A DNA stretch of 51,790 bases from Nanobdellota archaeon (GTDB taxonomy: Archaea; Nanobdellota; Nanobdellia; Pacearchaeales; GW2011-AR1), in assembly GCA_022563455.1 (NCBI GenBank), contig JADFNI010000002.1, positions 1 through 51,790 of the forward strand, in the 5' to 3' direction. Made by a program: the position numbers and the translations under genes. Positions 3,431-51,790 of this stretch are shown one piece after another; within the stretch, counting starts at the first letter, position 1, and each line of letters opens with the position of its first letter. The notes below the pieces were generated by a model. That model saw only the letters and a list, made by a program, of their open reading frames with translations, made no database searches and was not told the DNA's origin.

Positions 3431-3808
3431 TTGAATACAAAAATGGTGAGTAAAAAAATAGATTTTAGCTGGTGGCCTTTTGGATTTTTTTTCGGGGTTT
3501 TTATAGTTTTTATTAATATTATGATACTTTATAATGGTGGTTTTTCTCATTCTGTATTTCATATGATTTTCCACGCCTTGATTGCTTTTCTTTGTTTTGG
3601 AATTTTATTATTTTCATTAAGATTAAATGAATCTGCAATAAAATATATTTTCGCAGGAGTTCTGATTGGAATAATTGTTGAAACTTCTTCGTTTATATTA
3701 CATCTTTTTGGAGAATACTACTTTTTGTCCTCAAATCCTCTTAAAGGGTCAATTTGGATAGTTTCTATATTATTAATTATGGAAGGTTTTAAGGAGGCTG
3801 TAAAATGA
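3431..3808 (+). CDS. Small multi-pass membrane protein, unknown function
   Basis: Four hydrophobic segments (FGFFFGVFIVFINIMILY, ALIAFLCFGILLFSL, IFAGVLIGIIVETSSFIL, IWIVSILLIMEGF). The track start is TTG, with an in-frame ATG at 3443. The stop overlaps the next start (ATGA at 3805). Confidence 0.55.
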   Translation: MNTKMVSKKIDFSWWPFGFFFGVFIVFINIMILYNGGFSHSVFHMIFHALIAFLCFGILLFSLRLNESAIKYIFAGVLIGIIVETSSFILHLFGEYYFLSSNPLKGSIWIVSILLIMEGFKEAVK

Positions 3809-4056
3809 ATTTATTAGTTCAAATTTCTATACTTTTAATAATATCACTTATAGTTTTGACAAAAAGTGCTTTAAATATGATCACTGAAAAAAGAATAGGT
3901 ATTTTTATTCCTTTTTTTGGATGGGGGATTTCTTTTTGTCTAAGTGCTGGATTAATGTTTTATGGTTTTTTTGACTTAGCCAATGAAGTGATTCTTATAA
4001 CAACTTTTATATCAGTTTTAGCGATATTTTATATTATAATGGAGGCAACTAAATGA
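3805..4056 (+). CDS. Small membrane protein, unknown function
   Basis: Three hydrophobic helices in 83 aa. ATGA start/stop overlaps with both neighbours suggest translational coupling. Confidence 0.55.
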   Translation: MNLLVQISILLIISLIVLTKSALNMITEKRIGIFIPFFGWGISFCLSAGLMFYGFFDLANEVILITTFISVLAIFYIIMEATK

Positions 4057-4547
4057 TAGATAATGAAATTATTAATGCTCTTGGATTAAGTGTCTCTTTT
4101 ATGGGGGTAATGTTGAGTATTGTTTCCATTGGAATAATCTTCTTTATATCTAGAACTTCAAAGAAAAGTAAAAAAGAACTAATCAAAATTAGTTTCTTGA
4201 TTATTTCTTGGTCGACTTTTATAATTTTAAATACTTTCTTTAACGTTGGCACAGAAAATAATGCTCTAGTTTTTTTGAAATATTCCTTTGTACATGTCTC
4301 AATTATTTTATTTGGTGTTATCATTGTTTTAGCATCATTACTTATGCTTTCACATTTATCTAAGAAATTCGAAGAGGGTTTATTGATCATTGCTTTGACT
4401 GCTGCAATCGTTTCCATATTTGAAAAAATAATTTTCCCATTTTTTTGGAATCCTCTTATCGGTTTAATAAACCAAATTATAATGATCATTCCTATATTGC
4501 TTGGTTTTTTTATGATTATATTAAATGTTATTAATGATAAAAATTAA
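4053..4547 (+). CDS. Multi-pass membrane protein, unknown function
   Basis: Five predicted hydrophobic helices. Same strand as, and overlapping, the upstream gene. The antisense ORF 4049..4489 is its shadow. Confidence 0.55.
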   Translation: MIDNEIINALGLSVSFMGVMLSIVSIGIIFFISRTSKKSKKELIKISFLIISWSTFIILNTFFNVGTENNALVFLKYSFVHVSIILFGVIIVLASLLMLSHLSKKFEEGLLIIALTAAIVSIFEKIIFPFFWNPLIGLINQIIMIIPILLGFFMIILNVINDKN

Positions 4548-4548
4548 A

Positions 4549-5139
4549 ATGGAAAACACGAATAAAAAGAAAAAACTTGAAATAGTTATAATTATAATTT
4601 TGATGATATTCCTTTTAACTGTCCCGTTAATTATCTTTAAGGAAAATAATAAGTTTGATGGTTCAATTACTTTGCGAAACCTTGAGGGTAGAGCAATTTA
4701 TGAAGTATCAGTTACACAAGTGGAAAATTTTGGATTAGAATTAGCCGTAGAAGTTCCGGAAAAATATCAAAGTGTGAAGCCTGGAGAAACACTTCGATTT
4801 CAGATTACTATAAAAAACTTGGAAAGGGCGGGAAGATATGATATACAATTAGATTATTATATTAAGAAAAATGATATAATACTCGTAAATCGAAGAGAGA
4901 TTAAGGCAATTGAAACGCAAGCATCTTTTTTAAGTTCGATTAAAATTCCGGAGAATATTCTTCCAGGAATATATAGTATTGTAGTTGAGATTGATGAAGA
5001 AAGAAAGGCTATAGCTACATTTTATATTAAAAGTTCTGAGATAAACCAGATTAAAATATACCTTGCAATTTTGATTATAGCAATATTAGTAGTTGGAGGA
5101 CTAATTTCTTTTGAACTTCATAGACTTGGAAGCAAATAA
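4549..5139 (+). CDS. Bitopic membrane protein with an extracytoplasmic Ig-like/CARDB-like beta-sandwich
   Basis: The ATG at 4549 lies 1 nt after the upstream stop, whereas the track start 4525 would overlap that gene. N-terminal TM LEIVIIIILMIFLLTVPLIIF and C-terminal TM IYLAILIIAILVVGGLISF. Paralog of 49999..50490 and 51614..51790 (shared VPEKY..V..GE..F.I, ETQASF, PG.Y). Confidence 0.6.
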   Translation: MENTNKKKKLEIVIIIILMIFLLTVPLIIFKENNKFDGSITLRNLEGRAIYEVSVTQVENFGLELAVEVPEKYQSVKPGETLRFQITIKNLERAGRYDIQLDYYIKKNDIILVNRREIKAIETQASFLSSIKIPENILPGIYSIVVEIDEERKAIATFYIKSSEINQIKIYLAILIIAILVVGGLISFELHRLGSK

Positions 5140-5179: not shown

Positions 5180-6094
5180 ATGAAAATTAGCACTTTACTT
5201 GCAGTTGTATTTTTCGTCATAGCCTTGCTTTCGAGTACTGGTGGTACGGCATATTATTATAAACAATCAACCTCGATAGTTAAACAACAAATTTTTGAGA
5301 ATTTAGAAACTCTTTCTCAACTGAAGTTACAAAGTATTGATTATTTCTTTGATGGACAACAGGATAAGATAAGGATAATCTCAATAAGCAGGGGATTAGA
5401 TAATTCTGATTTGTTAAATCTTGTAAATATAAATAGACAATTTTATGAATTGTTTATTTTAGATCCTGGCGGAATAATAATTGCCTCTTCGAATGAATTG
5501 CGTGTTGGATTAGACATGTCCAAGAAAGATTACTTTGTTAATGCTAAAAATACAATTTATGTTACTGATGCCTATTATTCTAAGACAACTGGAAAGAATA
5601 ATATTTTATTCTCTTTGATTAATAATGATAATAATATATTGGTTGCGAGAATAGAGTTAAATGCTTTGGATGAAATTATGTTGGATAGGGCTGGTCTTGG
5701 AGATAGTGAAGAATTCTATTTAATAAATTCTGAAAAATATATACTGACTCCACAATTATTTGAGGATAATGCTCCATTAGGTGTTGTTATTGATACACTT
5801 GGAGCGAGAAGATGTTTTGGGAATTCTCTTGGAGAAAATAATGGAATGTTAACATATAGAGATTATAGGGGGGAGAGGGTTATTGGGGTTTCTTATTATA
5901 TTGAGGAAAGGGATTGGTGTCTATTGGTAAAGATTGACGAAACAGAAGTTTTAGGTAGTCGAGAAAAGGCATTTCAAAAAACTTCACTGTCTATTATAGC
6001 AATTTTTATAACTTCAGTTACATTATTTGGATATATTATTGGATTATTTCTTGATAAACTAATTGTTCTTAGGAAAAATAAGAGGAAATTTTAA
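5180..6094 (+). CDS. Cache-like (PDC-fold) extracytoplasmic sensor domain between two TM helices, with no cytoplasmic output domain
   Basis: N-terminal TM (LLAVVFFVIALLSS). Motifs shared with the five proteins at 44554-51617: GLGDSEEFYLINSEKYILTP, YRDYRGERVIGVSYYI, DWCLLVKIDETEVL. A second TM (LSIIAIFITSVTLFGYIIGLF) leaves only 13 residues before the stop. Confidence 0.65.
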   Translation: MKISTLLAVVFFVIALLSSTGGTAYYYKQSTSIVKQQIFENLETLSQLKLQSIDYFFDGQQDKIRIISISRGLDNSDLLNLVNINRQFYELFILDPGGIIIASSNELRVGLDMSKKDYFVNAKNTIYVTDAYYSKTTGKNNILFSLINNDNNILVARIELNALDEIMLDRAGLGDSEEFYLINSEKYILTPQLFEDNAPLGVVIDTLGARRCFGNSLGENNGMLTYRDYRGERVIGVSYYIEERDWCLLVKIDETEVLGSREKAFQKTSLSIIAIFITSVTLFGYIIGLFLDKLIVLRKNKRKF

Positions 6095-16540: not shown

Positions 16541-16541
16541 G

Positions 16542-30749: not shown

Positions 30750-30760
30750 AAGGATGAAAA

Positions 30761-39733: not shown

Positions 39734-40630
39734 ATGATTAAAAAAAGAAGTACAATAAAAAAAGGGATGATTAGTTTACTATTAATGTTCTTAATTCTTG
39801 GTTTTTTGCCACAAATTTATGCAGGAGAGGTCAGTTCTGCAGGAATTACAACCATTACAGAGGGTCTAGATGAGGGTTCGATTTTTGATTCAATTGAAAA
39901 AATTTACGAGATAAGTCCTTCACGCTTAAAAAAAGGATACTCCACAATATTAAATGAAAAGGAAGCATTTAGAATTCAAGTTGATGGAAGAGATTATTAT
40001 ATAATTCTTTGGGATGTTCTAGATGAGGGATCTGTAAATCTAATTTTTCCAAAAGAGAGACAATTAACTCTTGAAATTGGAGACATAGTTTTAGTAGATG
40101 TAAATAAAAATAATAAATTTGATGTTAGGTTGGAATTAAAACCAATTGAGGATATTAATTTAAATCAGAGCAAGAAAGCGAATCTTTTTATTAAGGAATT
40201 TGTTGAAAGTGAATTAATTCCAACAGGAGACTATTTCGAACTGTTTGACGTTACAGTCATATTAGTGGAGAAAGAAATTTATAATGCTCGAGAATTAGGT
40301 GCACTCATAACTTTTGAAAATTTTGGAGAAGGAGCGTCCGAAATAGAAATTGTTTATTCAATTATAGATTCAGACAATTTAGAAGTTTATCAGGGAGTAG
40401 ATTCTCTAGTTGTACAAACTGAAGACAGTGTGGTTAAGAATTTTAATTTTTTAGAATTGCCTTTTGGAAAATATATTTTAAGAACTGAGATATTTTATGG
40501 ACAAAATCAAACTGGAGAAAGTGAACAAGATTTTGAAATAGTCGAAGTACCCGTTTTTTTAATACTAAAAGAACCTTTATTCTTTATTTTGATAATTATT
40601 ATTCTATCAATGATCATTGGATATGTATGA
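39734..40630 (+). CDS. Anchored protein consisting almost only of the shared C-terminal tripartite module
   Basis: Signal/TM LLLMFLILGFLPQIYA. Divergent ELT.TTA-type domain (DGRDYYIILWDVLDEGSVNLIF..LTLEIGD). The FELFDV...ITFENFGEGASEIEIVYSIID domain. C-terminal TM LFFILIIIILSMIIGYV. Confidence 0.7.
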   Translation: MIKKRSTIKKGMISLLLMFLILGFLPQIYAGEVSSAGITTITEGLDEGSIFDSIEKIYEISPSRLKKGYSTILNEKEAFRIQVDGRDYYIILWDVLDEGSVNLIFPKERQLTLEIGDIVLVDVNKNNKFDVRLELKPIEDINLNQSKKANLFIKEFVESELIPTGDYFELFDVTVILVEKEIYNARELGALITFENFGEGASEIEIVYSIIDSDNLEVYQGVDSLVVQTEDSVVKNFNFLELPFGKYILRTEIFYGQNQTGESEQDFEIVEVPVFLILKEPLFFILIIIILSMIIGYV

Positions 40631-40668
40631 AGAGTTTCTAAAAGAGATATGGAAAAATTAAAGGAGAT

Positions 40669-42837
40669 ATGAAAATAGATATTTTAATAGTAGAAACCAT
40701 TAAGCGGATTTTTATCATTGGAATATTTTTAACATCCCTTAGCATGGTATATGCACAATCGATAAATATTACTAATCCATTGGGGGACGTAAATATTACT
40801 GCAGGGAATACTTTTAATATTGATTGGACTGGAGAAGATAATGACCATCACAAAATTGGTTACAGTACAGATCCCAGTGCAGCTTGTAGCGGCTCCTCTG
40901 GTTCTAGTGGGGAAGTGACTGGGTGGAATTTGATATGTCATCAAAGTTCTTGTAGCTCTCCTAAGAATATTTCTTTAGAACTTAATAGCTCGACGGTTAG
41001 GGTTAAAGTTACTGGACATAATGCAGGCCATACATCTATATCTGTAGATTGTTCAGATTTTTTCACAATTGCAAGTATACCCTCAGTTCCTACAAATTTA
41101 ATTTCTTCTGTTATTAATATAACTGCAACTAATCTTAGTTGGGATGCAGAATTATCTAGTGAACTTGTATCAAAATATTTAATATTTAGGGATAGCATTA
41201 ATATTGCAAATACGACTGATAATAATACTCTTAGCTATTTGGATACTGGTCTTAATTCATCACTTTATTATAATTATACAATTAGGAAAAATAATCCTAT
41301 TGGAGATTCTAGTTTTAGTAATTCTGTTAATGTGTCAACTTCTGCTGATGTAACTGCACCGGGAATCATTAGTAATTTAACTGCAATTGAAATTGGAGAT
41401 AATCATATATTTTGGAATTGGACTAACCCTAATAACGAAGACTTTAATCATACTTTAATATATAGAAATGGGGTTTTTCTTACAAATGTTTATTCTCCTA
41501 ATTCTTCTTATAACATGACTGGTCTTGCCACAAATACACCTTATACAATTTCCATAAGGACTGTAGATAATCTAAGCAATGTAAATTCAACTTATGTGAA
41601 TTTGAGTGCTACAACGACTGGTTCTTCTGGGGGAGATCCTGATCCTGGTGGAGGGGGTGGAGAAAGTGTAACTGTAAGCTCTCCCAATGGTGGTGAGACT
41701 TTAGAACCTTCTAGTTCTCATGATATAATTTGGAGCTCTTCTAATATTGATCATTTTGAAATATATTATTCTACTAATAGCGGGTCTAGTTGGACACTTT
41801 TGCAGTCTCATCCATATGGAAATTCTTCAACTATATCTTATTCTTGGACGTTGCAAGATTTTGAATCTTCTACTATGAGAGTAAGAGTTGACGGCCATGA
41901 CGAGGATCATGTCGTTAAAGCGACTGATAGTTCTAACTCAGATTTTTCTATTACTACTTCTTCAACTTCTGGTGGTGGTTCTGGTAGCGGGGGTGGTGGC
42001 ACTGAAAGTGTAAGTGAAACAACAGAAGTTGCTCCGACAATCTGGACTAAAACTTATGAAGAAGATGATACAGAACTGAGTGAAAAAGTTTTCGTTGAAA
42101 AAGTATTGGGGGAAAAGGAAAGTGTAAATGTTAAAATAAATGGTGAAACTCATACTGTTGGGGTAGTTGAATTAACAGAAACGACGGCATTAATTGAAGT
42201 TTCGTCTACTCCACAGCAGGTAACCTTGAATATTGGAGAAGAAAAAAAGTTCGAAGTTACTAATGATTCTTATTATGATATTTTAGTTAGTTTAAATAAT
42301 ATTACAAATGGAAAAGCCGATATTTCTATAATTTATATTCATGAGAAAATTCTTGAACCAAGTCAGCTATTTAATATAAAATTTGAATTGGAGGAGAATA
42401 CTATTAAGAGCATTTTTGAGCTTGTAGCAATTGTTACATTTGAGAATTTTGGTACAGTTGCAACTCCTGTGAATCTGACATTTATAATTTTGGATGAAGA
42501 AGGACGCGAAGTTTATAGGGAAGTCTCAAATATTACTCTGGAAGTTGAAGAAGTTTTGAGGTGGGATTATGGTTACATTGAAATTCTTCCTGAAGGAAAA
42601 TATATAGCAATCTTAGAGACTTTGTATGATTTGAATGTATCTGATGAATTCAAAGTTGAGTTTGAGATTAGTGAAAATGGATTCTTCTCATTGATTACTG
42701 GTAATGTTATTAAATTGCTTGGTAGGGAGGGTAGGTGGTGGTTAAGTTTGGTTGTTGGTCTTTGGATTACCTGCGTTATTTTTATTTTGATAAAATTAAG
42801 AAAAAGTAAAATCAAAATTATAAATAAAAGGAGGTGA
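40669..42837 (+). CDS. Anchored surface protein: two small beta-sandwich domains, two FN3-like domains, Gly-rich linkers, and the shared C-terminal tripartite module
   Basis: FN3-like PSVPTNLISSVINITATNLSWDA and APGIISNLTAIEIGDNHIFWNWTNP. HTVGVVELTETTALIEVSSTPQQVTLNIGEEKKFEVTNDSYYDILVSLNNI. LFNIKFEL..VTFENFGTVATPVNLTFIILDEEGREVYRE. GFFSLITGNVIKLLGREGRWWL followed by a TM. Confidence 0.85.
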   Translation: MKIDILIVETIKRIFIIGIFLTSLSMVYAQSINITNPLGDVNITAGNTFNIDWTGEDNDHHKIGYSTDPSAACSGSSGSSGEVTGWNLICHQSSCSSPKNISLELNSSTVRVKVTGHNAGHTSISVDCSDFFTIASIPSVPTNLISSVINITATNLSWDAELSSELVSKYLIFRDSINIANTTDNNTLSYLDTGLNSSLYYNYTIRKNNPIGDSSFSNSVNVSTSADVTAPGIISNLTAIEIGDNHIFWNWTNPNNEDFNHTLIYRNGVFLTNVYSPNSSYNMTGLATNTPYTISIRTVDNLSNVNSTYVNLSATTTGSSGGDPDPGGGGGESVTVSSPNGGETLEPSSSHDIIWSSSNIDHFEIYYSTNSGSSWTLLQSHPYGNSSTISYSWTLQDFESSTMRVRVDGHDEDHVVKATDSSNSDFSITTSSTSGGGSGSGGGGTESVSETTEVAPTIWTKTYEEDDTELSEKVFVEKVLGEKESVNVKINGETHTVGVVELTETTALIEVSSTPQQVTLNIGEEKKFEVTNDSYYDILVSLNNITNGKADISIIYIHEKILEPSQLFNIKFELEENTIKSIFELVAIVTFENFGTVATPVNLTFIILDEEGREVYREVSNITLEVEEVLRWDYGYIEILPEGKYIAILETLYDLNVSDEFKVEFEISENGFFSLITGNVIKLLGREGRWWLSLVVGLWITCVIFILIKLRKSKIKIINKRR

Positions 42838-42839
42838 CT

Positions 42840-42938
42840 ATGAAAAACAAAACATGCAAAAAGTGTAATGAGAAATTTTGTCCTAAGTGTGGCAGGGGAT
42901 GTAAATGTAAATCTTGCACATGTAAAAAAGTAAATTAG
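42840..42938 (+). CDS. Unannotated 32-aa Cys/Lys-rich mini-protein (zinc-finger / metallothionein-like)
   Basis: Hand translation: MKNKTCKKCNEKFCPKCGRGCKCKSCTCKKVN, with 8 Cys and 10 Lys. GGAGG at 42830-34 lies 5 nt before the ATG. The ATG is 2 nt after the upstream stop. Absent from the ORF track (too short). Confidence 0.5.
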   Translation: MKNKTCKKCNEKFCPKCGRGCKCKSCTCKKVN

Positions 42939-43045
42939 GGTAAAATGTTTCATTTTAAAACTAATTTCCGTTGATAAGTTTCAAATTTCAAACTTAAGTT
43001 TATAATAATATGATCATTAGTGTTAACGTTAATGGGTTGTCAAAA

Positions 43046-43264
43046 ATGAGAGAGGAAAAGATGGAAAAGATTATTGAAGTTTTAAAGAAAGAGCCTACCA
43101 GAGGATTTACTATAACCGAGATGGTAAAAAGTTCTAATTTATCTCGTCATATTGTGTTAAAAACTCTAACGCGATTGGAAGGGGCTGAAAGAGTTTCGAT
43201 TAGAAATGCTGGTATGGCTAAGATTTATTCGTTGAAAAAAAGTTCAACAGGCAGGCGAAAATAA
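43046..43264 (+). CDS. Winged-helix DNA-binding protein, paralog of 18088..18300, closing the island
   Basis: MREEKMEKIIEVLKKEPTRGFTITEMVKSSNLSRHIVLKTLTRLEGAERVSIRNAGMAKIYSL aligns end to end with the 70-aa protein. The track start 43010 adds 12 unaligned residues and would cover the palindrome TTAACGTTAA (43023..43032). Confidence 0.7.
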   Translation: MREEKMEKIIEVLKKEPTRGFTITEMVKSSNLSRHIVLKTLTRLEGAERVSIRNAGMAKIYSLKKSSTGRRK

Positions 43265-43425
43265 AATATCTCACTCTAAAGGGAGAGATATCTAAATAAA
43301 ATAAATAAACAAAATGCGATCACAAATAAATTCAAGATTGAGAAGAAGAATAGAATTAAATTTTATAAGGAGGACAGCGATTCTTCACTCGGTTTGAAGG
43401 TTGAAGTATCCTTGCTGTAGATGTA

Positions 43426-44547
43426 ATGAAAGACAATAGTTTTAATTTAAACAGGTTTTTATTTGGAAGCACTAAAAAAAAATTGATCTTAGGTTTTTTA
43501 ATAATTATTTTGTTAGTTGGAGTTGTATGGTATGTAGATTCTACCAAATTATTTGGAGTAAAAGAAGTAGCCATCCAGCAAGAAAAGGTGAGAGAGGTAG
43601 TTTTGTATAATTGGGAAGAATATACTGATCTTTCTATATTGGAGGATTTTGAAAAGGAGTATGGGATAAAAGTAAGGCTGGAGGAATATGGCCAGGCATT
43701 TGAGATGACTTCCTCACTTTATTCAGATTCTTCCAGGTATGATATTGTTGTCACAGACGGTCATTCCATAACAGCTTTGGCTAAAGCAAGGCTCCTTGCT
43801 GAATTAGACTTTGATAAGTTACCTAATTTTATCCATATAAACCCTGAATTTAAAGATCTTTATTTTGATCCGGAAAATAAATATTATATTCCGTATTTAT
43901 TTGGAACAACAGGCTTGGGTGTAAATACTAAATTCGTAACTGAACCAATAACAAGTTGGAATGACCTCTATGATCCAAAATACAAAGGAAAGATTGCTTT
44001 ACTAGACGACCCTCGTGAAGTTATGACTGTAGTATTGCAGTCTATGGGTGTATCAACAAACACAAGAGATGTACAGGTATTGAAGGACGCAGAAAAGAAA
44101 GCGAATCAGTTAAAGGAAAATGACGTTATTCTCTCAGACTACTTTCCTTTGCAACAAGAACTGATAGACGGAGATAAGTGGATTGTGATGGCGTACAGTG
44201 GAGATTTATTGAAAGCAACGCAGGACAATCCTGAAATAGTTTATATTCTTCCAGAAGAAGGATCAACTAAATGGCTTGATAACTATGTTATTTTGGCACA
44301 ATCAAAGAATATTGAATCAGCACATCTGTTTCTTAATTTTGTGATGAGACCTGAGATCGCAGCAAGAATTTCGAACAGCCAATTTTATGCAAGTCCGAAT
44401 AAAGATGCGAAAAGCATGATTAATTCAGATATATTGTCTAATCCGATAATTTATCCGTCAGAAAGTGAATTACGAAATAGTGAATATATTCTTGATGCGG
44501 GGGAATCACAAAGCGAATACAATAGAATTTATAGTCTGATAAAATAA
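43426..44547 (+). CDS. PotD/PotF-like polyamine-type solute-binding protein, N-terminally TM-tethered
   Basis: VVLYNWEEYTDLSILEDFEKEYGIKV, YDIVVTDGH, YYIPYLFGTTGLGVNTKFV, ITSWNDLYDPKYKGKIALLDDPREV. N-terminal TM LILGFLIIILLVGVVWYV. No permease or ATPase gene is nearby. Confidence 0.75.
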   Translation: MKDNSFNLNRFLFGSTKKKLILGFLIIILLVGVVWYVDSTKLFGVKEVAIQQEKVREVVLYNWEEYTDLSILEDFEKEYGIKVRLEEYGQAFEMTSSLYSDSSRYDIVVTDGHSITALAKARLLAELDFDKLPNFIHINPEFKDLYFDPENKYYIPYLFGTTGLGVNTKFVTEPITSWNDLYDPKYKGKIALLDDPREVMTVVLQSMGVSTNTRDVQVLKDAEKKANQLKENDVILSDYFPLQQELIDGDKWIVMAYSGDLLKATQDNPEIVYILPEEGSTKWLDNYVILAQSKNIESAHLFLNFVMRPEIAARISNSQFYASPNKDAKSMINSDILSNPIIYPSESELRNSEYILDAGESQSEYNRIYSLIK

Positions 44548-44553
44548 GTCACA

Positions 44554-45501
44554 ATGGTAAAAAGACTACAGGCCAAAATATTATTTTACTTTTTTATTAT
44601 TGCACTTGTTCCCATCATCATCATAGCTTCTTTGGCTGTAATTCAATCCAAAAAAGCAGTAGAAAATGGAGTAACTCAAGATTTTAAACAAATAGCAGAA
44701 GGATTATATGCTAACATAAACAGGGACGTTCTTAAAGGTTTTGAGGATATTGAGCTTCTGGCAACTAACCCCATAATTGCAGTAGAGAATATAGAAGCTG
44801 GAGAAAAGAGAGAGGAGTTATTCAAATTAAAGCAAATTTTTAGGGTATATGAAGATATAACATTAATTGATGTGGAAGGAAAGGTTATTACTTCTACAGA
44901 TTACAACTTTCGTGGTGCTTGGAGATATAAGGAAGGGTTCCAGGAAGCATTAAGTGGCTCTTCTGTTATCTCCAATGTTCATATAATACCTAATCCTTTT
45001 AAAGTAATAATTAGTTTTACAGCTCCTGTAGTTGATAAAGACTTCAACATTATCGCCGTTGTATCTGCACAACTAAATATGGAAAACATCTGGGAAATAA
45101 CAGATAGCGTCAAAATTGGTGAAACTGGATTTTCTTTTGTGCTAGATGAAAATTATAGGATTATAGCTCATCCTGATAAGGATAGGATTCTTAGTAATGT
45201 AGGTGAGGATGTGGTAATGCTTATTTCTGACAAAGCAGATTTTATGAAGTATACTGACAATGGTGATAATATTATTGGGAATTATTTTTTGAAAGATAAA
45301 CATAAAGATTATAGAAAACTATCAGCCCCATCTGTAGGTTGGACAGTAATGGTTGTTCAGAATGAGAAAGAAATTTTTTCAACAGTAAATGAATTAAAAA
45401 ATCAAATTATCTTATTTAGCGCACTGTTGCTTGTTATTGTAATACTCTTGAGTTTAAGTTTATCCCATTCCATCTTAAAACTCATTAAAGGAGGAAAATG
45501 A
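44554..45501 (+). CDS. Output-less Cache-like sensor-domain protein (TM, extracytoplasmic domain, TM)
   Basis: N-terminal TM ILFYFFIIALVPIIIIASLAV. IGETGFSFVLDENYRIIAHPD and GWTVMVVQNEKEIF. A second TM (IILFSALLLVIVILLSLSL) leaves ~13 residues before the stop. Confidence 0.6.
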   Translation: MVKRLQAKILFYFFIIALVPIIIIASLAVIQSKKAVENGVTQDFKQIAEGLYANINRDVLKGFEDIELLATNPIIAVENIEAGEKREELFKLKQIFRVYEDITLIDVEGKVITSTDYNFRGAWRYKEGFQEALSGSSVISNVHIIPNPFKVIISFTAPVVDKDFNIIAVVSAQLNMENIWEITDSVKIGETGFSFVLDENYRIIAHPDKDRILSNVGEDVVMLISDKADFMKYTDNGDNIIGNYFLKDKHKDYRKLSAPSVGWTVMVVQNEKEIFSTVNELKNQIILFSALLLVIVILLSLSLSHSILKLIKGGK

Positions 45502-45506
45502 AAAAA

Positions 45507-45530
45507 ATGAAAATGAAAATGAAAATGAAA
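45507..45530 (+). repeat. (ATGAAA)x4 hexanucleotide microsatellite inside an 18-codon mini-ORF (45498..45554) between two Cache genes
   Basis: Read directly. The mini-ORF MKKMKMKMKMKEKSKELI starts in an ATGA overlap with the upstream stop. The first 15 nt (atgaaaaaaatgaaa) are identical to the start of the next gene at 45560. Confidence 0.8.
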
Positions 45531-45559
45531 GAAAAATCAAAGGAACTGATCTGAAAAAA

Positions 45560-46597
45560 ATGAAAAAAATGAAACTAAAAACAGCACTTTTTTTAGTAGT
45601 AGCTTTAGCATGGCTTATAGGCGCATCAGGAGTTTTATATTTTTATCTTAGTTTAGGGGAAGTTTTAACAGAGAAATCTATAGATCATCTACTAACAGCA
45701 GCTGAATCAAGAGCAGATCATATCAACACATTTTTAGATGGAAAAAAGAATATTGCAGCTGAGTTTAGTTCTGATTCATTTATTAGGGAGAGTCTGGTTT
45801 TGTTGAAAAATGAAGAAAATTATGCTCAAATTAGCGATAATTTAAGTCTGTATTTGCTTCTGAATAAGATTGTGATAGATAAGGATGCTTATCAAGTTCA
45901 TGTCTTAGATACTAGGGGGACTGTTGTTGCTGGATCAGATATAAACGGGAAAGGCCTTGGAAAAAATAGCTTAAAGAGTGAATCATTTGTCAATGGAAAG
46001 ATTAAACCATTTATCAGCGGTATTTTTTATGACGAGGAATTCAATAGAAATGCTTATGCTGTGTCTGCACCAATACGTTCAGGAGGAGCATTTTTAGGAG
46101 TTATTGTGATTAAGATGGATTTAGAGACATTGTTTCGTATAACTACCGATAGAACGGGGCTAGGAAAGACTGGCGAGATCTATATTATAAATGAAGAAAA
46201 TTATCTTCTTACTCCTTCGCGGTTTTTAAGAGGAGAAAATAAGGGAATTTTAACTCAAGTTGTTGATACGGAAAATTCTAAAAAGTGTTTTGAAGGTATT
46301 GGGCGCTATGGGGCATTTGATGATGAAGAATTAGCAGAACACAGTAAGACAAGCGAAGAGGTTATTTTTGAAGATTACAGAGGGGAAGATGTTTTGGGAG
46401 TACATAGTCATATAATAAGCCAGCCTTGGTGTTTAATCGCAGAAATAGATAAATCAGAAGCATTATCAGCTCCACGAAAGAAATTATTAATCGTTTCTTT
46501 ATTTATTTTATTTGCCATGTCTTTTTTGTATATCTTACTTGCACATTTTTCTAGAAAGCTTTTGGATAAAGAAGAAAAATCTTGGGGGAAAAGGTGA
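45560..46597 (+). CDS. Output-less Cache-like sensor-domain protein (TM, extracytoplasmic domain, TM)
   Basis: RTGLGKTGEIYIINEENYLLTPSRF, KKCFEG, FEDYRGEDVLGVHSHI, PWCLIAEIDKSEAL. The second TM (LLIVSLFILFAMSFLYILLA) has a ~20-aa tail. Confidence 0.65.
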   Translation: MKKMKLKTALFLVVALAWLIGASGVLYFYLSLGEVLTEKSIDHLLTAAESRADHINTFLDGKKNIAAEFSSDSFIRESLVLLKNEENYAQISDNLSLYLLLNKIVIDKDAYQVHVLDTRGTVVAGSDINGKGLGKNSLKSESFVNGKIKPFISGIFYDEEFNRNAYAVSAPIRSGGAFLGVIVIKMDLETLFRITTDRTGLGKTGEIYIINEENYLLTPSRFLRGENKGILTQVVDTENSKKCFEGIGRYGAFDDEELAEHSKTSEEVIFEDYRGEDVLGVHSHIISQPWCLIAEIDKSEALSAPRKKLLIVSLFILFAMSFLYILLAHFSRKLLDKEEKSWGKR

Positions 46598-46621
46598 AAA
46601 ACAAAATATGGCAAGAATAAA

Positions 46622-47530
46622 ATGAGGAAATTGATTTTTAATGTTATGATTTTGAGCCTTTTGATTTTTGTTAGTTGGGGCAGTTTTATGATTTATAATA
46701 ATTATTCAGGCAATGGTGCTTTAGAAAATGAAGTTTATTCTTATTTGGAAAGTGTTGCTGAGTCTAAAGCGAATAGAATTGGTTTTTTCTTAGATGAAAG
46801 AAAAGACGATTTAGTTTTTTTGGCTTCATCAAAAGAGGTAGCTGATTTACTGAATGAGGGGCAAATAACAAAATCTATTGATGATAAACTAACCTTTTTC
46901 CAAGAGGTGAATAATTATTTAGATTTAATTTTAATGGATGTTAATGGAGAAGTTTTGTGGAGTGCAAAACAAAAAGAACTTATTGGGATTAATTTAAGTG
47001 GGGACGAAAGTACAAAGTTGGGTGAGGTTTATAATAAGGTAAAAAATGATTTTGGAGTTGGAATTTTTGATTCTGGATATTATAGTGGAAATGAAAAATT
47101 GTCTGTTTTTGTTACAACTCCAGTTTTAGTTGATTCTTTGAGTGTAAGCGGGAAAAAAGACATTCTTGGGATAATTGCTTTACAGATTGATAATTCTCAA
47201 ATTGAACAAAGGATTCAAAGTGATGTTGGCTTGGAAGAATCTGGGAAGATTTACTTAGTCAATAGGGATGGAACTGTAACTGCTGGACTTGAGGGGATAG
47301 TTGAAATTAATACTCAAATGTATAAGGATTGTTTTAAAGATTATAATAATTATTATTTTGAAAGAGCGGGGCAAGAGATTGAGCTTATTGATGGCAGTGG
47401 AATTTATGAAAATTATAATGGGGATAGTGTTTTTGGGGCACATCAGTATATTCTAGAAACTGGTTGGTGCGTGATGGTTGAAATTGAAAAAAATAAATTT
47501 TATGATTCTTTGGGGGGAAAGGGAAAATGA
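46622..47530 (+). CDS. Cache-like sensor-domain protein with an N-terminal TM only (no second TM)
   Basis: VGLEESGKIYLVNRDGTV, KDCFKD, YENYNGDSVFGAHQYI and GWCVMVEIEKNKF, then only 9 more residues. ATGA overlap with the downstream SBP gene. Confidence 0.6.
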   Translation: MRKLIFNVMILSLLIFVSWGSFMIYNNYSGNGALENEVYSYLESVAESKANRIGFFLDERKDDLVFLASSKEVADLLNEGQITKSIDDKLTFFQEVNNYLDLILMDVNGEVLWSAKQKELIGINLSGDESTKLGEVYNKVKNDFGVGIFDSGYYSGNEKLSVFVTTPVLVDSLSVSGKKDILGIIALQIDNSQIEQRIQSDVGLEESGKIYLVNRDGTVTAGLEGIVEINTQMYKDCFKDYNNYYFERAGQEIELIDGSGIYENYNGDSVFGAHQYILETGWCVMVEIEKNKFYDSLGGKGK

Positions 47531-48669
47531 AGCTATCAATACTTTTGCCAATTATCTTTTTATTTGTTGGTTTGGTTGGAGGTTATATCTTTTTTAGTTT
47601 TGTATCTGAGAGTTATGAGAGTTCACAACAACCATTAAATAATGTCGGTGAAAAAGAGCCATTATCTTTATTTCTTGATATATGGGCCGGATATGCTCCG
47701 GCAATTATTGCTCTTGAAAAAGGATTTTTTGAAAAAAGAGGAGTAAATGTAAACATAAATGTAACATCTGACTATTCTAACCTACCTGATAAGCTAAAAA
47801 GGTATGATGGTTTTTTTGGAACATATCCCCGTGCAATTTTACTTAATGGTCAGGGAACCCCTGTCAAAGTAGTTTATGTTAGTGATTTTTCAGACGGTGC
47901 AGATGTTATAGTTAGCAAACCTGAAATTAAAAATGTAAAAGATTTAGAGGGTAAAACAATAAGCGTTGAGGAGCTTGATACATATTCTCATTTATTTGTG
48001 ATATCTTTATTAAATAAATTTGGAGTAGAAGAAGCAAGCGTTAATTTTGTTGAAATTCATCCCAGCAAGATAATAGAGGCCTTAGAAGAAGACAGGATTG
48101 ATGCAGGACACACATGGGAGCCAACACAAACACAAGCTATTGATATGGGTTACAAATTGCTTATTACTTCGGTAGATACTCCAAGGATTATTACTGATGT
48201 TTTAATTCTAAATGAAGACGTTGTAAAGAATAGGAATAATGATGTTAGAATGATAGTTGATGGTTTGTTTGAAGCCCTTGAATTTATAGATAAAAATCCT
48301 GATGAAGCGCATATTATTATAGATAAGAAACTTGGTATTCCTAAGAAAGAGTTTGAGAATTCTGTTAAATGGTTGAAATTTCCAAATAGAGAAGAAAATG
48401 TGCAGGCCTTTACTGAATTAGAAAGTGATTATGATCTGACTTCTTTATATGAAAGTGGTAAATTTATTTCTGAATTTTATGTTACGCGTGGTTTAATAAA
48501 TGGTTCTGTGGATGTAAATGCTTTATTAGACTCTAGATTTGTTAGAGGAGACGAGAATCCCATAAAAATAATTTCTCCTATAATCGTTGTTATTTTGATT
48601 TTGATTTTGATTTTATCCGGATTTTTTATTGGTAGATATTTTGATTTATTTAAGGAGGGAAGAAAATGA
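47527..48669 (+). CDS. NMT1/THI5-like (nitrate/sulfonate/bicarbonate-type) solute-binding protein, anchored by both an N- and a C-terminal TM
   Basis: IWAGYAPAIIALEKGFFEKRGVNVNI, VKDLEGKTISVEE.DTYSHLF, IDAGHTWEPT. TMs LLPIIFLFVGLVGGYIFFSF and IISPIIVVILILILILSGFFIG. Confidence 0.7.
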   Translation: MKLSILLPIIFLFVGLVGGYIFFSFVSESYESSQQPLNNVGEKEPLSLFLDIWAGYAPAIIALEKGFFEKRGVNVNINVTSDYSNLPDKLKRYDGFFGTYPRAILLNGQGTPVKVVYVSDFSDGADVIVSKPEIKNVKDLEGKTISVEELDTYSHLFVISLLNKFGVEEASVNFVEIHPSKIIEALEEDRIDAGHTWEPTQTQAIDMGYKLLITSVDTPRIITDVLILNEDVVKNRNNDVRMIVDGLFEALEFIDKNPDEAHIIIDKKLGIPKKEFENSVKWLKFPNREENVQAFTELESDYDLTSLYESGKFISEFYVTRGLINGSVDVNALLDSRFVRGDENPIKIISPIIVVILILILILSGFFIGRYFDLFKEGRK

Positions 48670-50006
48670 TTAAAGACAGTAGTTTATTTTTTATGATTTT
48701 TGTCGTCAGTGTTTTTATGGTTGTAGAATTTCAGATTTATGTAAGTGTTTTTTCTTCTGACAATGATTTTGATAATCAAGTTGAAAATCACTTGATTAGT
48801 ACTGTTCAAATTAAGGGAGAGAGAATCAATGATTATTTTTTAGAAAGAAAACATGATGCTTTAGTTTTGGCTGATTCGGTTGAGGTCAAGAAATTATTGC
48901 AAGGAGATGTTGGAATGGGAGTTGAAATTATTGAAAAGAATATTAAAAATGATTTGGATGTTATTTCTAAACAAATTGAGATTTTTGTTGGTAAATATCC
49001 GAAATTGAGTTTTTCTGAATTACAAGAAGATTTTGAGTTTCAGAATATTGTATCTAGAGGACTAGGCGAAACAGGATCTACTTTTCTTGTAGATTTTAAC
49101 AGTTTTGATAAGGGAGAATTTGATTATTATAATTCAGCGAGTGTAAGGACTAGTGACGAGGTATTGTTAGGTGTTGCAGCAAAAGTTAACTTAAACGAAT
49201 TTAAAATTTTAGATAATCCTCCAGTTGATTTAACAAATTCTATGGAAAGATTTAGAGAAATTTCTGATTATAAAAATTTAATTTTAATTAATCCTGAAGG
49301 ATATGTTATTTATGAAGTTGATAGTGGAAGTGAACTTGGGACTAATTTGAATTTTAATGCATATAATAAACTTCCTTTGGGAAAAGCTTATTTCGAAGCT
49401 AAAGATTCTAGAAGTGTAATTGTTTATGGTCCTTACTTAGGGATAGGGGAAACTGAACTTGTTCTTTTGTTTTTAGCTAAGGTTTACGAAGGAGAAAGAT
49501 TTCTTGGAATGATTGTATTACAAGATTCGATGAATGCTGTTAACATTATCTCTACAGAGTCAGCTGGTCTTGGAAAAACGGGAGACTCTTATATTGTTGA
49601 TGAAAATAAATTTTTAATTACCTCTTCTAAAATGGGTGGAGCTGACTTACTTATACAGGAAGTTAAAACAGAAAATACAAAAAGGTGTTTTGCCGAAACT
49701 ATTGGAAAAATTTCATATTTTGAGGATTTTAAAGGGGATTTTGTTATTGGAACTTATGTAAATATCTTGGAAGTTGAGTGGTGTTTAGTTGCAGAAATCA
49801 GCGAACAGGAAGTTTTTGATACTCCAAAGCAAGGAAAAATTAGGCAGGATTTAGCGGTTATTATTATATTGAATTTAGCCTTGTTAATTTTTGGATGGAT
49901 TTTTACGAGGAATTTAACTATAAATGACACTACTTTAAGTACGAAAAAAAGGGTGGAGGAGAAAAAGATGGAGGGGGAAGAAAGGGTGGAGGAAGAAAAT
50001 GAATAA
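48666..50006 (+). CDS. Output-less Cache-like sensor-domain protein (larger, probably double module)
   Basis: SAGLGKTGDSYIVDENKFLITSS, KRCFAE, FEDFKGDFVIGTYVNI, EWCLVAEISEQEVF. Second TM LAVIIILNLALLIFGWIF, followed by a ~45-aa Glu/Lys-rich tail. Confidence 0.65.
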   Translation: MIKDSSLFFMIFVVSVFMVVEFQIYVSVFSSDNDFDNQVENHLISTVQIKGERINDYFLERKHDALVLADSVEVKKLLQGDVGMGVEIIEKNIKNDLDVISKQIEIFVGKYPKLSFSELQEDFEFQNIVSRGLGETGSTFLVDFNSFDKGEFDYYNSASVRTSDEVLLGVAAKVNLNEFKILDNPPVDLTNSMERFREISDYKNLILINPEGYVIYEVDSGSELGTNLNFNAYNKLPLGKAYFEAKDSRSVIVYGPYLGIGETELVLLFLAKVYEGERFLGMIVLQDSMNAVNIISTESAGLGKTGDSYIVDENKFLITSSKMGGADLLIQEVKTENTKRCFAETIGKISYFEDFKGDFVIGTYVNILEVEWCLVAEISEQEVFDTPKQGKIRQDLAVIIILNLALLIFGWIFTRNLTINDTTLSTKKRVEEKKMEGEERVEEENE

Positions 50007-50490
50007 ATTATGTTTAATAATTATAATTGGGATAATATTCTTTAATTTTATTGGTATTGCGTCTGTTTCGGCACTTAGTATAACTGTTCATGTGCCTGAA
50101 AAATATAATGAGGTGAATGCTGGAGAAAGATTTTATTTTGAGATTTCAGTTAAATATCCTGAGAACCCTACGAGAATTGATTTAAGATTAACTTATGAAG
50201 TTGTTGATGCGAATGGAGAGGTTATTGCTTCTGCTAAGACTTTGAAAGCGGTGGAAACTCAAGCATCTTTTATTGATTTTATTGTTCTTCCAGATGAAAT
50301 GGAATTTGGTAGACATGAAATTGATATCTTGGTAAGAGATTATGGAGACTTAGATGAAAAGGTAGGTTCAAGTTTTAATGTTACAAGGAATAGAGTTGAT
50401 ACGCTTTTCACATATGTTTATATTTTAATTGGAGCTGTTGTCTTACTTTTAATATTAATTATTGTAGTATTGTTAAGGAGGGGAAGATGA
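49999..50490 (+). CDS. Bitopic Ig-like/CARDB-like membrane protein, paralog of 4549..5139
   Basis: ALSITVHVPEKYNEVNAGERFYFEISVKYPENPTRIDLRLTYEVVD..AVETQASFIDFIVLP. C-terminal TM YILIGAVVLLLILIIVVLL. Overlaps both neighbours. Confidence 0.65.
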   Translation: MNKLCLIIIIGIIFFNFIGIASVSALSITVHVPEKYNEVNAGERFYFEISVKYPENPTRIDLRLTYEVVDANGEVIASAKTLKAVETQASFIDFIVLPDEMEFGRHEIDILVRDYGDLDEKVGSSFNVTRNRVDTLFTYVYILIGAVVLLLILIIVVLLRRGR

Positions 50491-51617
50491 ATAATAATCT
50501 TTTAAATAAAAAACTCCTGTATGGAGTGATTCTTTTACTTTTTGCGATACTATTTCTTTTTCTTATCTTTGACGGTTATTTTGAGTTAGACCGAGATATA
50601 AGAATCTATTCAGCAGAGGCTGTAGACATTATTGATCAAAGAATAACATCTCTTTTATTTGAAGTGAATGTTTTTCCCCAATTTGCAGGAGATGATCTTA
50701 TTTTCCTTAGTAAGTTATCTAGTTTTAAAAAAGTAGCATACTCAACAGAAGATAGTAATGTTAATTTAGTCGATTTGGAAAATGATTTTTTAGCATTTTT
50801 AAAAGAAAGCACGGCATATTATCAGCTTGGTTATATCGACGGTCAAGGAAATGAAATTGTAAAGGTAGAATATGATAGAAAAAATTATATGGTAATCACA
50901 AAGGAACATCTAGGCAACGAGAAAGATGAGTTTTATTTTACTGAGGCATTTAATTTTGATTATAAAGATTTTTATATTTCTAGAATTAGCTTAAATGTGA
51001 AGGACGAAGAAATAGAAAATAGGGGTACAATAGAAAATCCAGAGTATGTTCCTATTGTTTTAGTTGCTACTCCTGTATTTGATGAAAACAAGAAAAAAAT
51101 GGGAGTTGTTTTCTTGAGTTTTTATGCTGATTATTTTTTGGCTGATATTAGAAATTTTCAGAGGGAAGGGGAAGAGATTTTTTTAATTAATGAAGGGGGA
51201 GATTATCTTGCTCACTCAAACAGGGAAAAAGAATTCGCTTTTATTTTTGGAGGGGATGAAAATATTTATAAGGATTATCCGGAGATTACCCAAGAAATTC
51301 TGTTTGATTATTATGAGAGGAGATTCGAAACAAGTGATTTAATTTTTTCTTTTAGATATCTTTATCCAACGATTGGAGGCTTTAGGGTTAATGAATTTTC
51401 TGAAAACACCTTTGGAAGGAATCCTGAAGAGAGTAATTTTTGGGTTTTAGTAAGTGTTTCAGATAAAAGTGTAATAGATAACACTGTTAAAGAGTTAAAG
51501 AGTAAATATCTTTACTTTTTATTATTTTCAGGGTTAATTGTTTTTATAATTATCCTTTTGATATTTGTTGCTGTCTTCAAAGGGTTTGATAGTAAATCTT
51601 TTAGGGAGAAAAAATGA
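50487..51617 (+). CDS. Output-less Cache-like sensor-domain protein (divergent)
   Basis: N-terminal TM LLYGVILLLFAILFLFLIF. Periodic Cache-like pattern (YQLGYIDGQGNEIVKVE, PIVLVATPVFDENKKKMGVVFLSF, EGEEIFLINEGGDYLAHSN, FWVLVSVSDKSVI). Second TM LYFLLFSGLIVFIIILLIFVAVF with a 13-aa tail. Confidence 0.55.
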   Translation: MNNNLLNKKLLYGVILLLFAILFLFLIFDGYFELDRDIRIYSAEAVDIIDQRITSLLFEVNVFPQFAGDDLIFLSKLSSFKKVAYSTEDSNVNLVDLENDFLAFLKESTAYYQLGYIDGQGNEIVKVEYDRKNYMVITKEHLGNEKDEFYFTEAFNFDYKDFYISRISLNVKDEEIENRGTIENPEYVPIVLVATPVFDENKKKMGVVFLSFYADYFLADIRNFQREGEEIFLINEGGDYLAHSNREKEFAFIFGGDENIYKDYPEITQEILFDYYERRFETSDLIFSFRYLYPTIGGFRVNEFSENTFGRNPEESNFWVLVSVSDKSVIDNTVKELKSKYLYFLLFSGLIVFIIILLIFVAVFKGFDSKSFREKK

Positions 51618-51790
51618 AAAAATTTGTAATTCTTATGGTATTATTATATATGTTAAATTTTATTGGCATGGCTTCTGTCTCTGCCTTAAGCATAGTTGTG
51701 CATGTTCCTGAGAAATATGTAGATGTACAGGCAGGAGAAAGGTTTTATTTTGAGATTGAGATTAAGTATCCTGAGAATCCTTCGAGAAGT
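51614..51790 (+). CDS. Bitopic Ig-like/CARDB-like membrane protein, 3'-truncated by the window edge
   Basis: Hand translation: MKKFVILMVLLYMLNFIGMASVSALSIVVHVPEKYVDVQAGERFYFEIEIKYPENPSRS. It is almost colinear with the N-terminus of 49999..50490. ATGA overlap with the upstream stop. Confidence 0.7.
   Translation, partial: MKKFVILMVLLYMLNFIGMASVSALSIVVHVPEKYVDVQAGERFYFEIEIKYPENPSRS

Follow-up and report, generated by a model that had tools for sequence, protein, structure and literature searches.

How is ligand binding at the cell surface passed to the cell when the binding proteins are encoded with neither a transducer nor a transporter? Among the proteins that bind small molecules outside the prokaryotic cell, Cache domains and substrate-binding proteins (SBPs) form the two largest classes, and nearly all are read out by kinases, chemoreceptors, cyclases, or ABC permeases. 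The question is raised by nine genes, g1 to g9, at positions 43426-51790 of a 51,790-nt stretch of DNA from a Nanobdellota archaeon (contig JADFNI010000002.1, assembly GCA_022563455.1), hereafter called the window. An original prediction, made from the sequence alone, described the nine genes as an array of tethered ligand-binding domains without a partner. It proposed that the outputs are supplied in trans through contacts between transmembrane (TM) helices or, as its preference, that the proteins are surface traps or receptors for metabolites. The array described there is real, as confirmed here. The interpretation proved only partly right, since no ABC or kinase gene lies immediately downstream, yet the array does have polytopic membrane partners, which we call T4, T3, and T5. 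Our favored reading, which is tentative and somewhat short of probable, is that g1 to g9 open a DPANN surface-receptor operon, in which a kinase-free extracytoplasmic sensing array would feed T4-T3-T5 via TM helices.

The region contains eight complete open reading frames (ORFs) and one cut at the window end, all on the + strand. The window is AT-rich (G+C about 31%), and its + strand is coding almost throughout from 18 kb to the end. The spacings at the junctions from g1 to g9 are +6, +58, +24, −4, −4, −8, −4, and −4 nt; the 4-8-nt overlaps at five of the eight junctions agree with the co-directional, overlapping arrangement first described. TM helices were called by hydropathy only in all proteins, and the topologies match those predicted, including that of the 46622..47530 product (g4), which has no second TM. 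Pfam and NCBIfam profile scans of g1-g9, with hits inspected to E ≤ 1, gave no match to HAMP, HisKA, HATPase_c, MCPsignal, GGDEF/EAL, or PP2C in the nine proteins, and the predicted absence of such outputs holds. No cytoplasmic transmitter domain is found in them, and the tails past the second TM are 9-30 residues long. The same scans bear out the domain kinds that had been named: a PotD-like SBP, five Cache proteins, and an NMT1-like SBP have Pfam or NCBIfam matches, and the profile matches of the two small Ig-like proteins are all weak.

The product of g1 (43426..44547, + strand) is a PotD-like, polyamine-type SBP with a single N-terminal TM. It matches SBP_bac_8 with 107 bits, NCBIfam PotD with 199 bits (the equivalog cut-off of 582 is not reached), and solved PotD structures with E values of 1e-54 to 4e-62 in a search of PDB sequences. 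In the alignment with 7xjm, read by eye using what we take to be the Escherichia coli PotD numbering, W34, E36, Y37, D168, E171, W255, D257, and Y293 are kept, and the substitutions at the presumed contact positions are S83D, Y85H, and W229Y. The second SBP, g5 (47527..48669, + strand), is an SsuA/TauA-like member of NMT1 (80 bits) with a TM at both ends. It scores 114 bits against NCBIfam SsuA_fam (subfamily cut-off 163.5, not reached) and is a distant relative of TauA (E 8e-9). No riboswitch or RNA leader that would name a ligand was matched by Rfam in the window. The neighbors of the SBP genes should be noted. Each SBP gene adjoins a bitopic dCache gene (g1-g2 and g5-g6), and SBP-Cache gene pairs are also present in seven of the related loci collected for comparison (L003, L004, L007, L015, L016, L023, and L024). 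An SBP gene next to the gene for a dCache-like receptor is known to mark receptors that are activated through an SBP, archaeal BasB/BasT and CosB/CosT among them (PMC8050422).

The Pfam cut-offs relevant to the Cache proteins are 45 bits for dCache_1 (PF02743) and 27 bits for HK_sensor_dom_bact (PF21623). The bitopic dCache proteins g2 (44554..45501, + strand; dCache_1, 66.9 bits) and g3 (45560..46597, + strand; 67.0 bits) have a TM at each end and cytoplasmic tails of about 10 and about 14 residues, respectively. The dCache protein g4 (46622..47530, + strand; 64.3 bits) has an N-terminal TM only. The bitopic Cache protein g6 (48666..50006, + strand; 46.4 bits) is extended at its N-terminus by a helical segment and ends in a charged tail of 30 residues. 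The bitopic Cache-type protein g8 (50487..51617, + strand), with a TM at each end, matches HK_sensor_dom_bact with 58.2 bits and dCache_1 at a sub-threshold 33 bits. The Cache fold was modelled for g3 only. With the AlphaFold2 model of g3 (50 sequences, pLDDT 92.4), Foldseek found the ligand-binding dCache domains of three proteins, Mlp24, PctA, and DctB, at E values near 1e-13 and target TM-scores near 0.7. The predicted structure shows a dCache fold, a double PDC (α/β) on a long N-terminal helix.

Of the 47 homologs of g3, most are 300-350 aa long and contain a Cache domain alone, and about 40 keep this length and both TMs; the one carrying a source name is labelled "Nanoarchaeota archaeon". 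The nearest bacterial homologs, which are few, have HAMP, with or without a kinase. The g4 gene is the first member of a conserved cassette of g4-type gene, bitopic partner gene, and Ig gene, with an L003 ortholog of 52% identity. The g6 protein, which has an L003 ortholog of 37% identity, is a paralog of the Cache-T4 fusion g11 described below (24% identity over 425 aa, E 5e-32). The g8 gene is the first of a pair of g8-type Cache gene and Ig gene, and its orthologs in L004 and L006 (52-62% identity) are each followed by an Ig gene.

The genes beyond g9 were read on L001 (ENA contig k141_123342), not on the window itself. L001 also encodes g8 and overlaps the window at 40487-51790 with 13 mismatches in 11,304 nt (99.9% identity), and is therefore from a near-identical strain. 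After g9, L001 encodes a 32-aa ORF, g10 (183 aa, Ig-like), g11, an 86-aa protein, and g12. The g11 protein (610 aa) consists of a Cache ectodomain, one TM, and a 4-TM bundle (T4). The 86-aa protein, encoded between g11 and g12, has three TMs (T3). The g12 protein (522 aa) consists of a 5-TM bundle (T5), a basic loop, a sixth TM, and a second PotD-like SBP with 31% identity to g1. The operon thereby comprises some 15 genes in about 16 kb. The 7.6 kb downstream on L001 contain no gene for an ABC permease or ATPase, a histidine kinase, or a methyl-accepting chemotaxis protein (MCP), in keeping with the predicted absence of a cognate permease, ATPase, or kinase there; nor was an ABC permease or ATPase found among the scanned window ORFs. 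The claim that the array has no partner does not stand, since these polytopic proteins, fused to Cache and SBP domains, follow it, recur in about 20 loci, and occur unfused elsewhere in the window.

The unfused forms are encoded at 3431-4547. T4 (3431..3808, + strand) is a stand-alone 4-TM protein of 125 aa homologous to the C-terminal bundle of g11. T3 (3805..4056, + strand) is a 3-TM protein of 83 aa, a homolog of the 86-aa L001 protein, with 45% identity to the L006 protein encoded at 3401. T5 (4053..4547, + strand) is a 5-TM protein of 164 aa homologous to the N-terminal domain of g12. They are followed by an Ig-like protein of 204 aa and by a sixth dCache-only bitopic protein of the window (5180..6094, + strand; 304 aa; dCache_1, 45.5 bits; 36% identity to L006 Cache proteins), which together form a minimal set at 3431-6094. 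In L006 too, unfused T4, T3, and T5 are next to Ig and Cache genes. The homology between the fused and unfused forms (E 1e-25 to 1e-40 with locally built hidden Markov models, HMMs) extends to all three proteins, and the two forms together define the module.

Its membership is narrow and its arrangement is regular. The local HMM family of T4 has 22 members, 21 of which are fused to or beside a Cache gene (gene maps read by eye), and the 21 members of the T3 family are invariably located between T4 and T5. An exhaustive HMMER search returned 26 cluster representatives of T5 among 1.84 billion, all stand-alone or fused to SBP_bac_8 and to nothing else; a word-indexed homolog search seeded with the TM domain of g12 returned one protein. 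T4, T3, and T5 gave no Pfam match at E ≤ 10 and no significant match in profile searches against PDB sequences, and no transporter domain was detected in g11 or g12 by Pfam. The AlphaFold2 model of T5 (pLDDT 88, pTM 0.84) has five helices and a small hairpin. The cytoplasmic loops of the module, as read by eye, are all short and basic.

The small Ig-like proteins are the most conserved component of the arrays, with up to 79% identity between loci. The g7 protein (49999..50490, + strand; 163 aa, MG2/CARDB-like) has a signal peptide-like N-terminus and a C-terminal TM anchor, and its Pfam match to Big_8 is weak (E 0.06). The second one, g9 (51614..51790, + strand), is cut by the window end and is complete on L001 (11128-11616, 162 aa); it is a paralog of g7 with 53% identity. 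The third is the 204-aa protein of the unfused set (4525..5139, + strand; MG2, E 1e-5; CARDB, E 1.5e-3), with 31-41% identity to g7, g9, and their orthologs. The identity of g7 to its paralogs and orthologs is 50-62%. The weak profile matches predict a β-sandwich, "Ig-like" fold for g7 and g9; the Ig-like profile had no match among PDB sequences. An Ig-like probe found 46 loci in a one-genome-per-species collection, labelled Pacearchaeota, Woesearchaeota, Nanoarchaeia, and several phyla of the candidate phyla radiation (CPR). Of the 58 small Ig genes, 19 follow T5 and 12 follow a Cache gene. These anchored proteins, which close each cassette, are probably structural or stalk subunits.

For the census of related loci, ORFs were called and iterative HMMs were built locally over all loci, and the family labels used here come from those HMMs. 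The homologs of g3 are found in arrays of Cache genes, Ig-like genes, and SBP genes (NMT1, PBP_like_2, Peripla_BP_6, and ABC_sub_bind). Three cassettes recur: T4, T3, and T5, with T4 optionally fused to a Cache domain and T5 to a PotD-type SBP, closed by an Ig gene (cassette A); a large Ig-type protein, an N-anchored dCache protein of the g4 type, a bitopic partner of the g6 type, and an Ig protein (cassette B); and a g8-type Cache protein followed by an Ig protein (cassette C). T4, T3, and T5 occur together in 17 of 52 loci and one or two of them in 7 more, and a Cache gene is within 10 kb of an Ig marker in 40 of the 52. The orthologs are intact, with 35-62% identity and the same gene order across genomes. 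The array is more than a chance assembly, because this order is kept across many genomes, which answers the synteny check suggested with the original prediction. Among the families with at least two members in 149 co-directional neighbors at about 50 related loci, Pfam detected no ABC_tran, BPD_transp, HisKA, or HATPase_c, and MCP genes did not recur either.

Some relatives do carry a cytoplasmic sensory domain. Five CPR-labelled loci (L032, L035, L037, L041, and L042) have a cassette of a large Ig protein, an N-anchored dCache_1 protein (52-70 bits) that is the counterpart of g4, a bitopic protein that takes the place of the bitopic Cache protein, and a small Ig protein. Pfam places PAS on the cytoplasmic side of this bitopic protein in L032, L041, and L042; the L035 counterpart gave no Pfam match, and no PAS domain was called in L037. 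L035 is bacterial, with VanW and PG_binding_4 neighbors on a 329-kb contig, and L037 is on a 715-kb WWE3 contig. The Ig-Cache-PAS cassette is the only part that is securely bacterial. An assignment of the T module to CPR was withdrawn, because L053, labelled Dojkabacteria, has an archaeal-type uS2. In addition, a Nanoarchaeota protein, P0053, consists of a g11-type Cache ectodomain, one TM, and PAS domains. The contig of P0053 (L008, GCA_043826105.1) also encodes several multi-PAS proteins and a fused CheB-CheR, and some members of the lineage therefore keep chemotaxis-type signalling parts.

From these arrangements a mechanism can be proposed. Ligands would be caught by the tethered SBPs, the PotD-like one for polyamine-type cations and the SsuA/TauA-like one, and by the N-anchored dCache protein. 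We infer that these proteins dock on the bitopic dCache proteins, as in LuxP-LuxQ, BasB-BasT, and NspS-MbaA, and that the resulting conformational change passes sideways through the TM hairpins to a membrane-embedded partner. This lateral path would be the only option, because the bitopic proteins have no cytoplasmic domain. The partner would be T4-T3-T5, three proteins with 12 helices whose genes form the 3′ part of the operon, a short way past the window end. The output would most likely lie within the membrane, as an ion or solute path that is gated or modulated or as lateral contact with another membrane protein, because T4-T3-T5 has no cytoplasmic domain and its loops are short and basic. 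A sensing array is favored by the hairpin sensor topology, the adjacency of SBP and dCache genes, and the presence of PAS or HAMP in relatives. The predicted supply of outputs in trans through TM-TM contacts gains support from the T4-T3-T5 partner and from the PAS-bearing relatives, while the coupling itself would follow the path proposed here. A more specific proposal, which we consider possible and rather doubtful, is that T4-T3-T5 is a three-subunit channel, transporter, or conductance regulator, mainly or only of DPANN, that is gated or fed by the T4-fused Cache domain and the T5-fused PotD-like SBP, with the satellite Cache and SBP paralogs as interchangeable inputs.

Several observations weigh against a sensing array coupled to T4-T3-T5. 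The T module is missing from about half of the loci marked by an Ig gene. The SBP families in the arrays are uptake types (PotD, SsuA/TauA, PstS-like, LivJ-like, ABC_sub_bind, and SBP_bac_3), which fit scavenging equally well, and the dCache_1AA amino-acid motif was not recognizable in g3 on inspection by eye. In the last gene of a Pacearchaeota array (L009, 15526-17517), a Cache ectodomain is joined to a transporter domain of the Cons_hypoth698 (YeiH/UPF0324) type (Pfam, E 4.5e-36). To our knowledge, such a fusion is unusual. The T5 model has no structural neighbor at E ≤ 0.001 in Foldseek, and its best match, the SatP acetate channel, was rejected as not significant (E 0.48, TM-score 0.48). 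In the alignments of T4 and T5, hardly any polar residue is invariant, the invariant residues being glycines only. Channels, transporters, and enzymes seldom show such a pattern, which would suit a passive scaffold just as well.

Three other explanations were weighed. The proteins may form an uptake apparatus, in which the tethered SBPs pass nutrients (polyamines, sulfonates, or others) to ABC transporters encoded elsewhere, or to T4-T3-T5 as a new SBP-dependent secondary transporter or a channel, with the Cache domains as gates or regulators. We regard this explanation as somewhat unlikely. DPANN archaea rely on imported metabolites, and the source of the window fits the premise, made in the original prediction, that the organism scavenges from a host. 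The SBPs belong to transport-type families, and g1 seems to retain most of the PotD contacts, as judged by eye with numbering that we take to be that of E. coli PotD. T5 has a PotD-like SBP as its only fusion partner, as in fusions of a binding domain to a permease; the L009 array ends in the transporter fusion; the window array has no cytoplasmic signalling domain; and the SBPs of archaea are normally TM-tethered (PMC8050422). However, permease and ATPase genes are absent from the window and the 7.6 kb downstream and are not recurrent in the roughly 50 loci, and T4, T3, and T5 are unlike any transporter family in Pfam or PDB sequences, as is T5 in its fold. Conserved polar intramembrane residues are wanting in T4 and T5, the five or six Cache proteins per operon are hard to account for by transport alone, and the CPR and P0053 relatives bear PAS, a sensory domain.

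Alternatively, the Cache, SBP, and Ig-like proteins may be a static surface coat of metabolite traps or host-surface adhesins or receptors, with T4-T3-T5 as a membrane raft or anchor only. Every component is extracellular or membrane-located, the operon is within an island of anchored surface proteins, several of which share a C-terminal anchor module, and the low residue conservation of T4 and T5 suits a scaffold. The Ig and Cache cassette is also common to DPANN and CPR, both of which are ultra-small, likely episymbionts. Nevertheless, the Cache proteins span the membrane as a two-TM hairpin, a signalling topology known from MCPs and kinase sensors that anchoring would not require, and the specific, repeated Cache-T4 and T5-SBP fusions imply a stoichiometric functional link. 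The relatives with PAS or HAMP argue in the same direction, and a trap unable to deliver its ligand would bring no obvious gain. We regard a static coat as unlikely; the evidence speaks neither for nor decisively against the surface trap preferred in the original prediction. Far less probable still is that the Cache-only genes are truncated, functionless remnants of histidine kinases or chemoreceptors acquired from bacteria. The HAMP, with or without a kinase, of the closest bacterial g3 homologs could be taken that way, as could the fact that more than 90% of Cache domains are fused to an output, stand-alone forms being termed atypical (PMC12889525). Decay is, however, difficult to reconcile with about 40 homologs from many samples that retain a length of 300-350 aa and both TMs, with intact orthologs (35-62% identity) in the same gene order across genomes, with the high-confidence predicted fold of g3 (pLDDT 92.4), and with the preserved tight overlaps of 4-8 nt.

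Other candidate assignments were rejected. A secondary transporter of the TRAP or TTT type would require DctQ/DctM or TctA/TctB subunits, which are absent; T4, T3, and T5 have no Pfam or PDB match, and T5 has no fold match. A Cys-loop or glutamate-receptor channel was dismissed because Pfam found no channel domain in T4, T3, T5, g11, or g12 and the Foldseek search with T5 was empty at E ≤ 0.001. MrpF was discarded as a relative of the T module, its PDB profile hit having an E value of 0.11 only. A class III signal peptide has the motif [KR][GA] followed by a hydrophobic stretch. The N-termini of g1-g8, inspected by eye, lack this motif, and pilin-like SBPs of a bindosome were thus rejected; no type IV filament (TFF) ATPase or platform was found among the window ORFs scanned. 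The SBPs of archaeal bindosomes have a pilin-like signal peptide and are served by a TFF ATPase and platform (bioRxiv 10.64898/2026.04.22.720090).

The sensing array and its membrane partner resemble several known systems in part. The g1 and g5 proteins share fold, family, and TM tethering with the archaeal ABC-importer SBPs (PotD of PotABCD; SsuA/TauA), and by eye g1 seems to keep most of the PotD contacts. Unlike for those SBPs, neither a permease nor an ATPase is encoded in or near the operon, g5 has an anchor at each end, and the second PotD-like protein carries a 5-TM bundle that is not of ABC type. The PotD-like NspS works with MbaA in Vibrio cholerae, and the array likewise employs a PotD-family SBP outside an ABC operon. 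YycH and YycI are membrane-anchored extracellular PDC-like accessory proteins of WalK, which have no output domain and act via TM-helix contacts. The Cache proteins of the array are similarly anchored, PDC-like, and without an output domain, but the partner of YycH/YycI is a classical histidine kinase, whereas the array is unrelated in sequence and has SBPs, Ig-like subunits, and a 12-TM module. As in LuxP/LuxQ, HptA/HptS, and Halobacterium BasB/BasT and CosB/CosT (PMC8050422), a tethered SBP is encoded beside a bitopic dCache-type protein. LuxQ, HptS, BasT, CosT, and MbaA have a kinase, MCP, or GGDEF/EAL transmitter, whereas the array proteins end in tails of 9-30 residues or a membrane-only bundle. 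The array also differs from SBP-activated receptor pairs in having many paralogous Cache genes per operon and Ig-like subunits.

Cache domains without a fused signalling module are known as stand-alone sCache_heme (PMC12889525) and dCache_1AM (PMC10589655), both of which their authors describe as atypical. Those are single soluble or periplasmic domains, in contrast to the bitopic proteins of the array, which are encoded in multi-paralog operons with dedicated membrane partners. Prokaryotic ligand-gated channels with fused or operonic Cache or PBP domains are a further precedent (Tasneem et al. 2005, PMC549065). In those channels, as in the array, the binders are tied to a membrane effector without an enzymatic output, and stand-alone Cache or PBP genes are located in the effector operon; class C G protein-coupled receptors, ionotropic glutamate receptors, and the α2-δ subunit of calcium channels are similar by analogy. 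T4, T3, and T5, however, have no sequence similarity to the Cys-loop, glutamate-receptor, or 7TM families, T5 has no fold match to them, no pore-lining motif is evident, and the candidate effector is split into three small proteins. Full-text searches for Cache domains in DPANN, Woesearchaeota, Pacearchaeota, Nanoarchaeota, or Patescibacteria turned up no account of such arrays. The domains are known, but the way they are arranged here seems to be undescribed, as do the families of T4, T3, T5, and the Ig-like proteins.

The operon family is conserved and dispenses with the usual readouts, its binders being linked instead to three small membrane proteins and Ig-like anchored subunits. It is found in DPANN archaea, and its PAS-bearing variant in CPR bacteria, lineages that are thought to be host-dependent. 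A 2018 survey counted at most one histidine kinase or two-component system in each of four completed DPANN genomes and found Cache-containing kinases to be almost confined to Methanomicrobia (PMC5847659). Should the module transduce or transport, ligand binding outside would be coupled to the cell in a new way, and the module would offer a concrete handle on how these symbionts sense or take up compounds of their host, polyamines for example. If T4-T3-T5 is the effector, chemoreception or uptake would be free of both kinase and ATPase, which would explain how ultra-small symbionts with few or no two-component systems sense or harvest metabolites of the host. Even if the module is a scaffold only, several uncharacterized lineage-specific families would remain, together with a common C-terminal anchor module of giant surface proteins.

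This anchor module bears on where the unit begins. The 722-aa surface protein encoded upstream of g1 (40669..42837, + strand; Pfam fn3) ends in a module of a 150-aa β-sandwich and a TM anchor. In BLASTP, its residues 564-716 have 37-55% identity to the C-termini of the 4006-aa and 580-aa proteins of the window and to the large Ig proteins of about 40 loci, including L035, L037, and L041 of CPR. Large Ig proteins with this module open related cassettes, and a local HMM relates the small Ig-like proteins to it. Because the module is common to the 722-aa protein and the cassette-opening proteins, the unit probably starts upstream of 43426, at 40669, and includes a conserved gene at 43010. The latter encodes an 84-aa winged helix-turn-helix (wHTH) DNA-binding protein (43010..43264, + strand), for which the Pfam wHTH matches are all weak. 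Its orthologs (47-54% identity) are directly upstream of Cache arrays in L003, L004, and L007, and its local HMM has 14 members, including a second window copy at 18088. This protein is probably a local regulator of the operon. Sorting of the C-terminal anchors by a sortase, archaeosortase, or PGF-CTERM pathway was rejected, as no PGF, PEP, or LPXTG motif was seen by eye and the only profile match was Gram_pos_anchor at E 0.29.

An imperfect hairpin at 43266-43296 (ATATCTCACTCT...GGAGAGATAT) is located right after the wHTH stop, about 130 nt before g1, and may act as a terminator or an operator. A Cys-rich 32-aa ORF (42840..42938, + strand; MKNKTCKKCNEKFCPKCGRGCKCKSCTCKKVN), with a GGAGGTGA motif just upstream, separates the 722-aa gene from the wHTH gene. 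Comparable CxxC-rich mini-ORFs adjoin arrays in L007 (5024), L026 (5157), and L022, and P0049, a homolog of g11, has a Cys-rich insert within a cytoplasmic loop.

The operon belongs to an island of co-directional genes, 38 kb long, that encode anchored surface proteins (4006, 1665, 580, 298, and 722 aa). In the 18088-35758 region (+ strand), the second wHTH copy (18088) is followed by a LuxR/GerE-type HTH protein with a TM (18297-18638) and, downstream of these two genes, by the giant surface proteins (4006 aa and 1665 aa). The C-terminus of the 4006-aa protein is the β-sandwich and TM anchor module of the 722-aa protein (55% identity). The 7281-17703 region has housekeeping genes, namely those for a RadC-like JAB protein, a NUDIX protein, an HMGL-like synthase, UbiA, an FAD oxidoreductase, and a KaiC-like ATPase. 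A sodium:solute symporter (13390-14730, − strand) is the sole recognizable transporter in the window and is unlinked to the arrays.

The labels of some related contigs require care. For L053 (JAFCCB010000022.1, labelled Candidatus Dojkabacteria), the best PDB matches of uS2 are archaeal S2P and then eukaryotic SA, and this contig is probably a mis-binned DPANN contig, as judged from this protein sequence. Mis-binning may also have affected L024 and L025, the other CPR-labelled loci with the T module; the HisRS encoded on L025 is uninformative on lineage. Two Fic genes lie directly after the operon on L001 (16110-17006, + strand, and 17272-18513, − strand), which corresponds by extrapolation to about 56.6-59.0 kb in window coordinates. 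Fic genes are also beside the arrays in L024 (10595) and L053 (7393), and genes for MMR_HSR1-type GTPases follow the arrays in L007, L016, and L017. These Fic and GTPase neighbors may reflect chance or lineage synteny.

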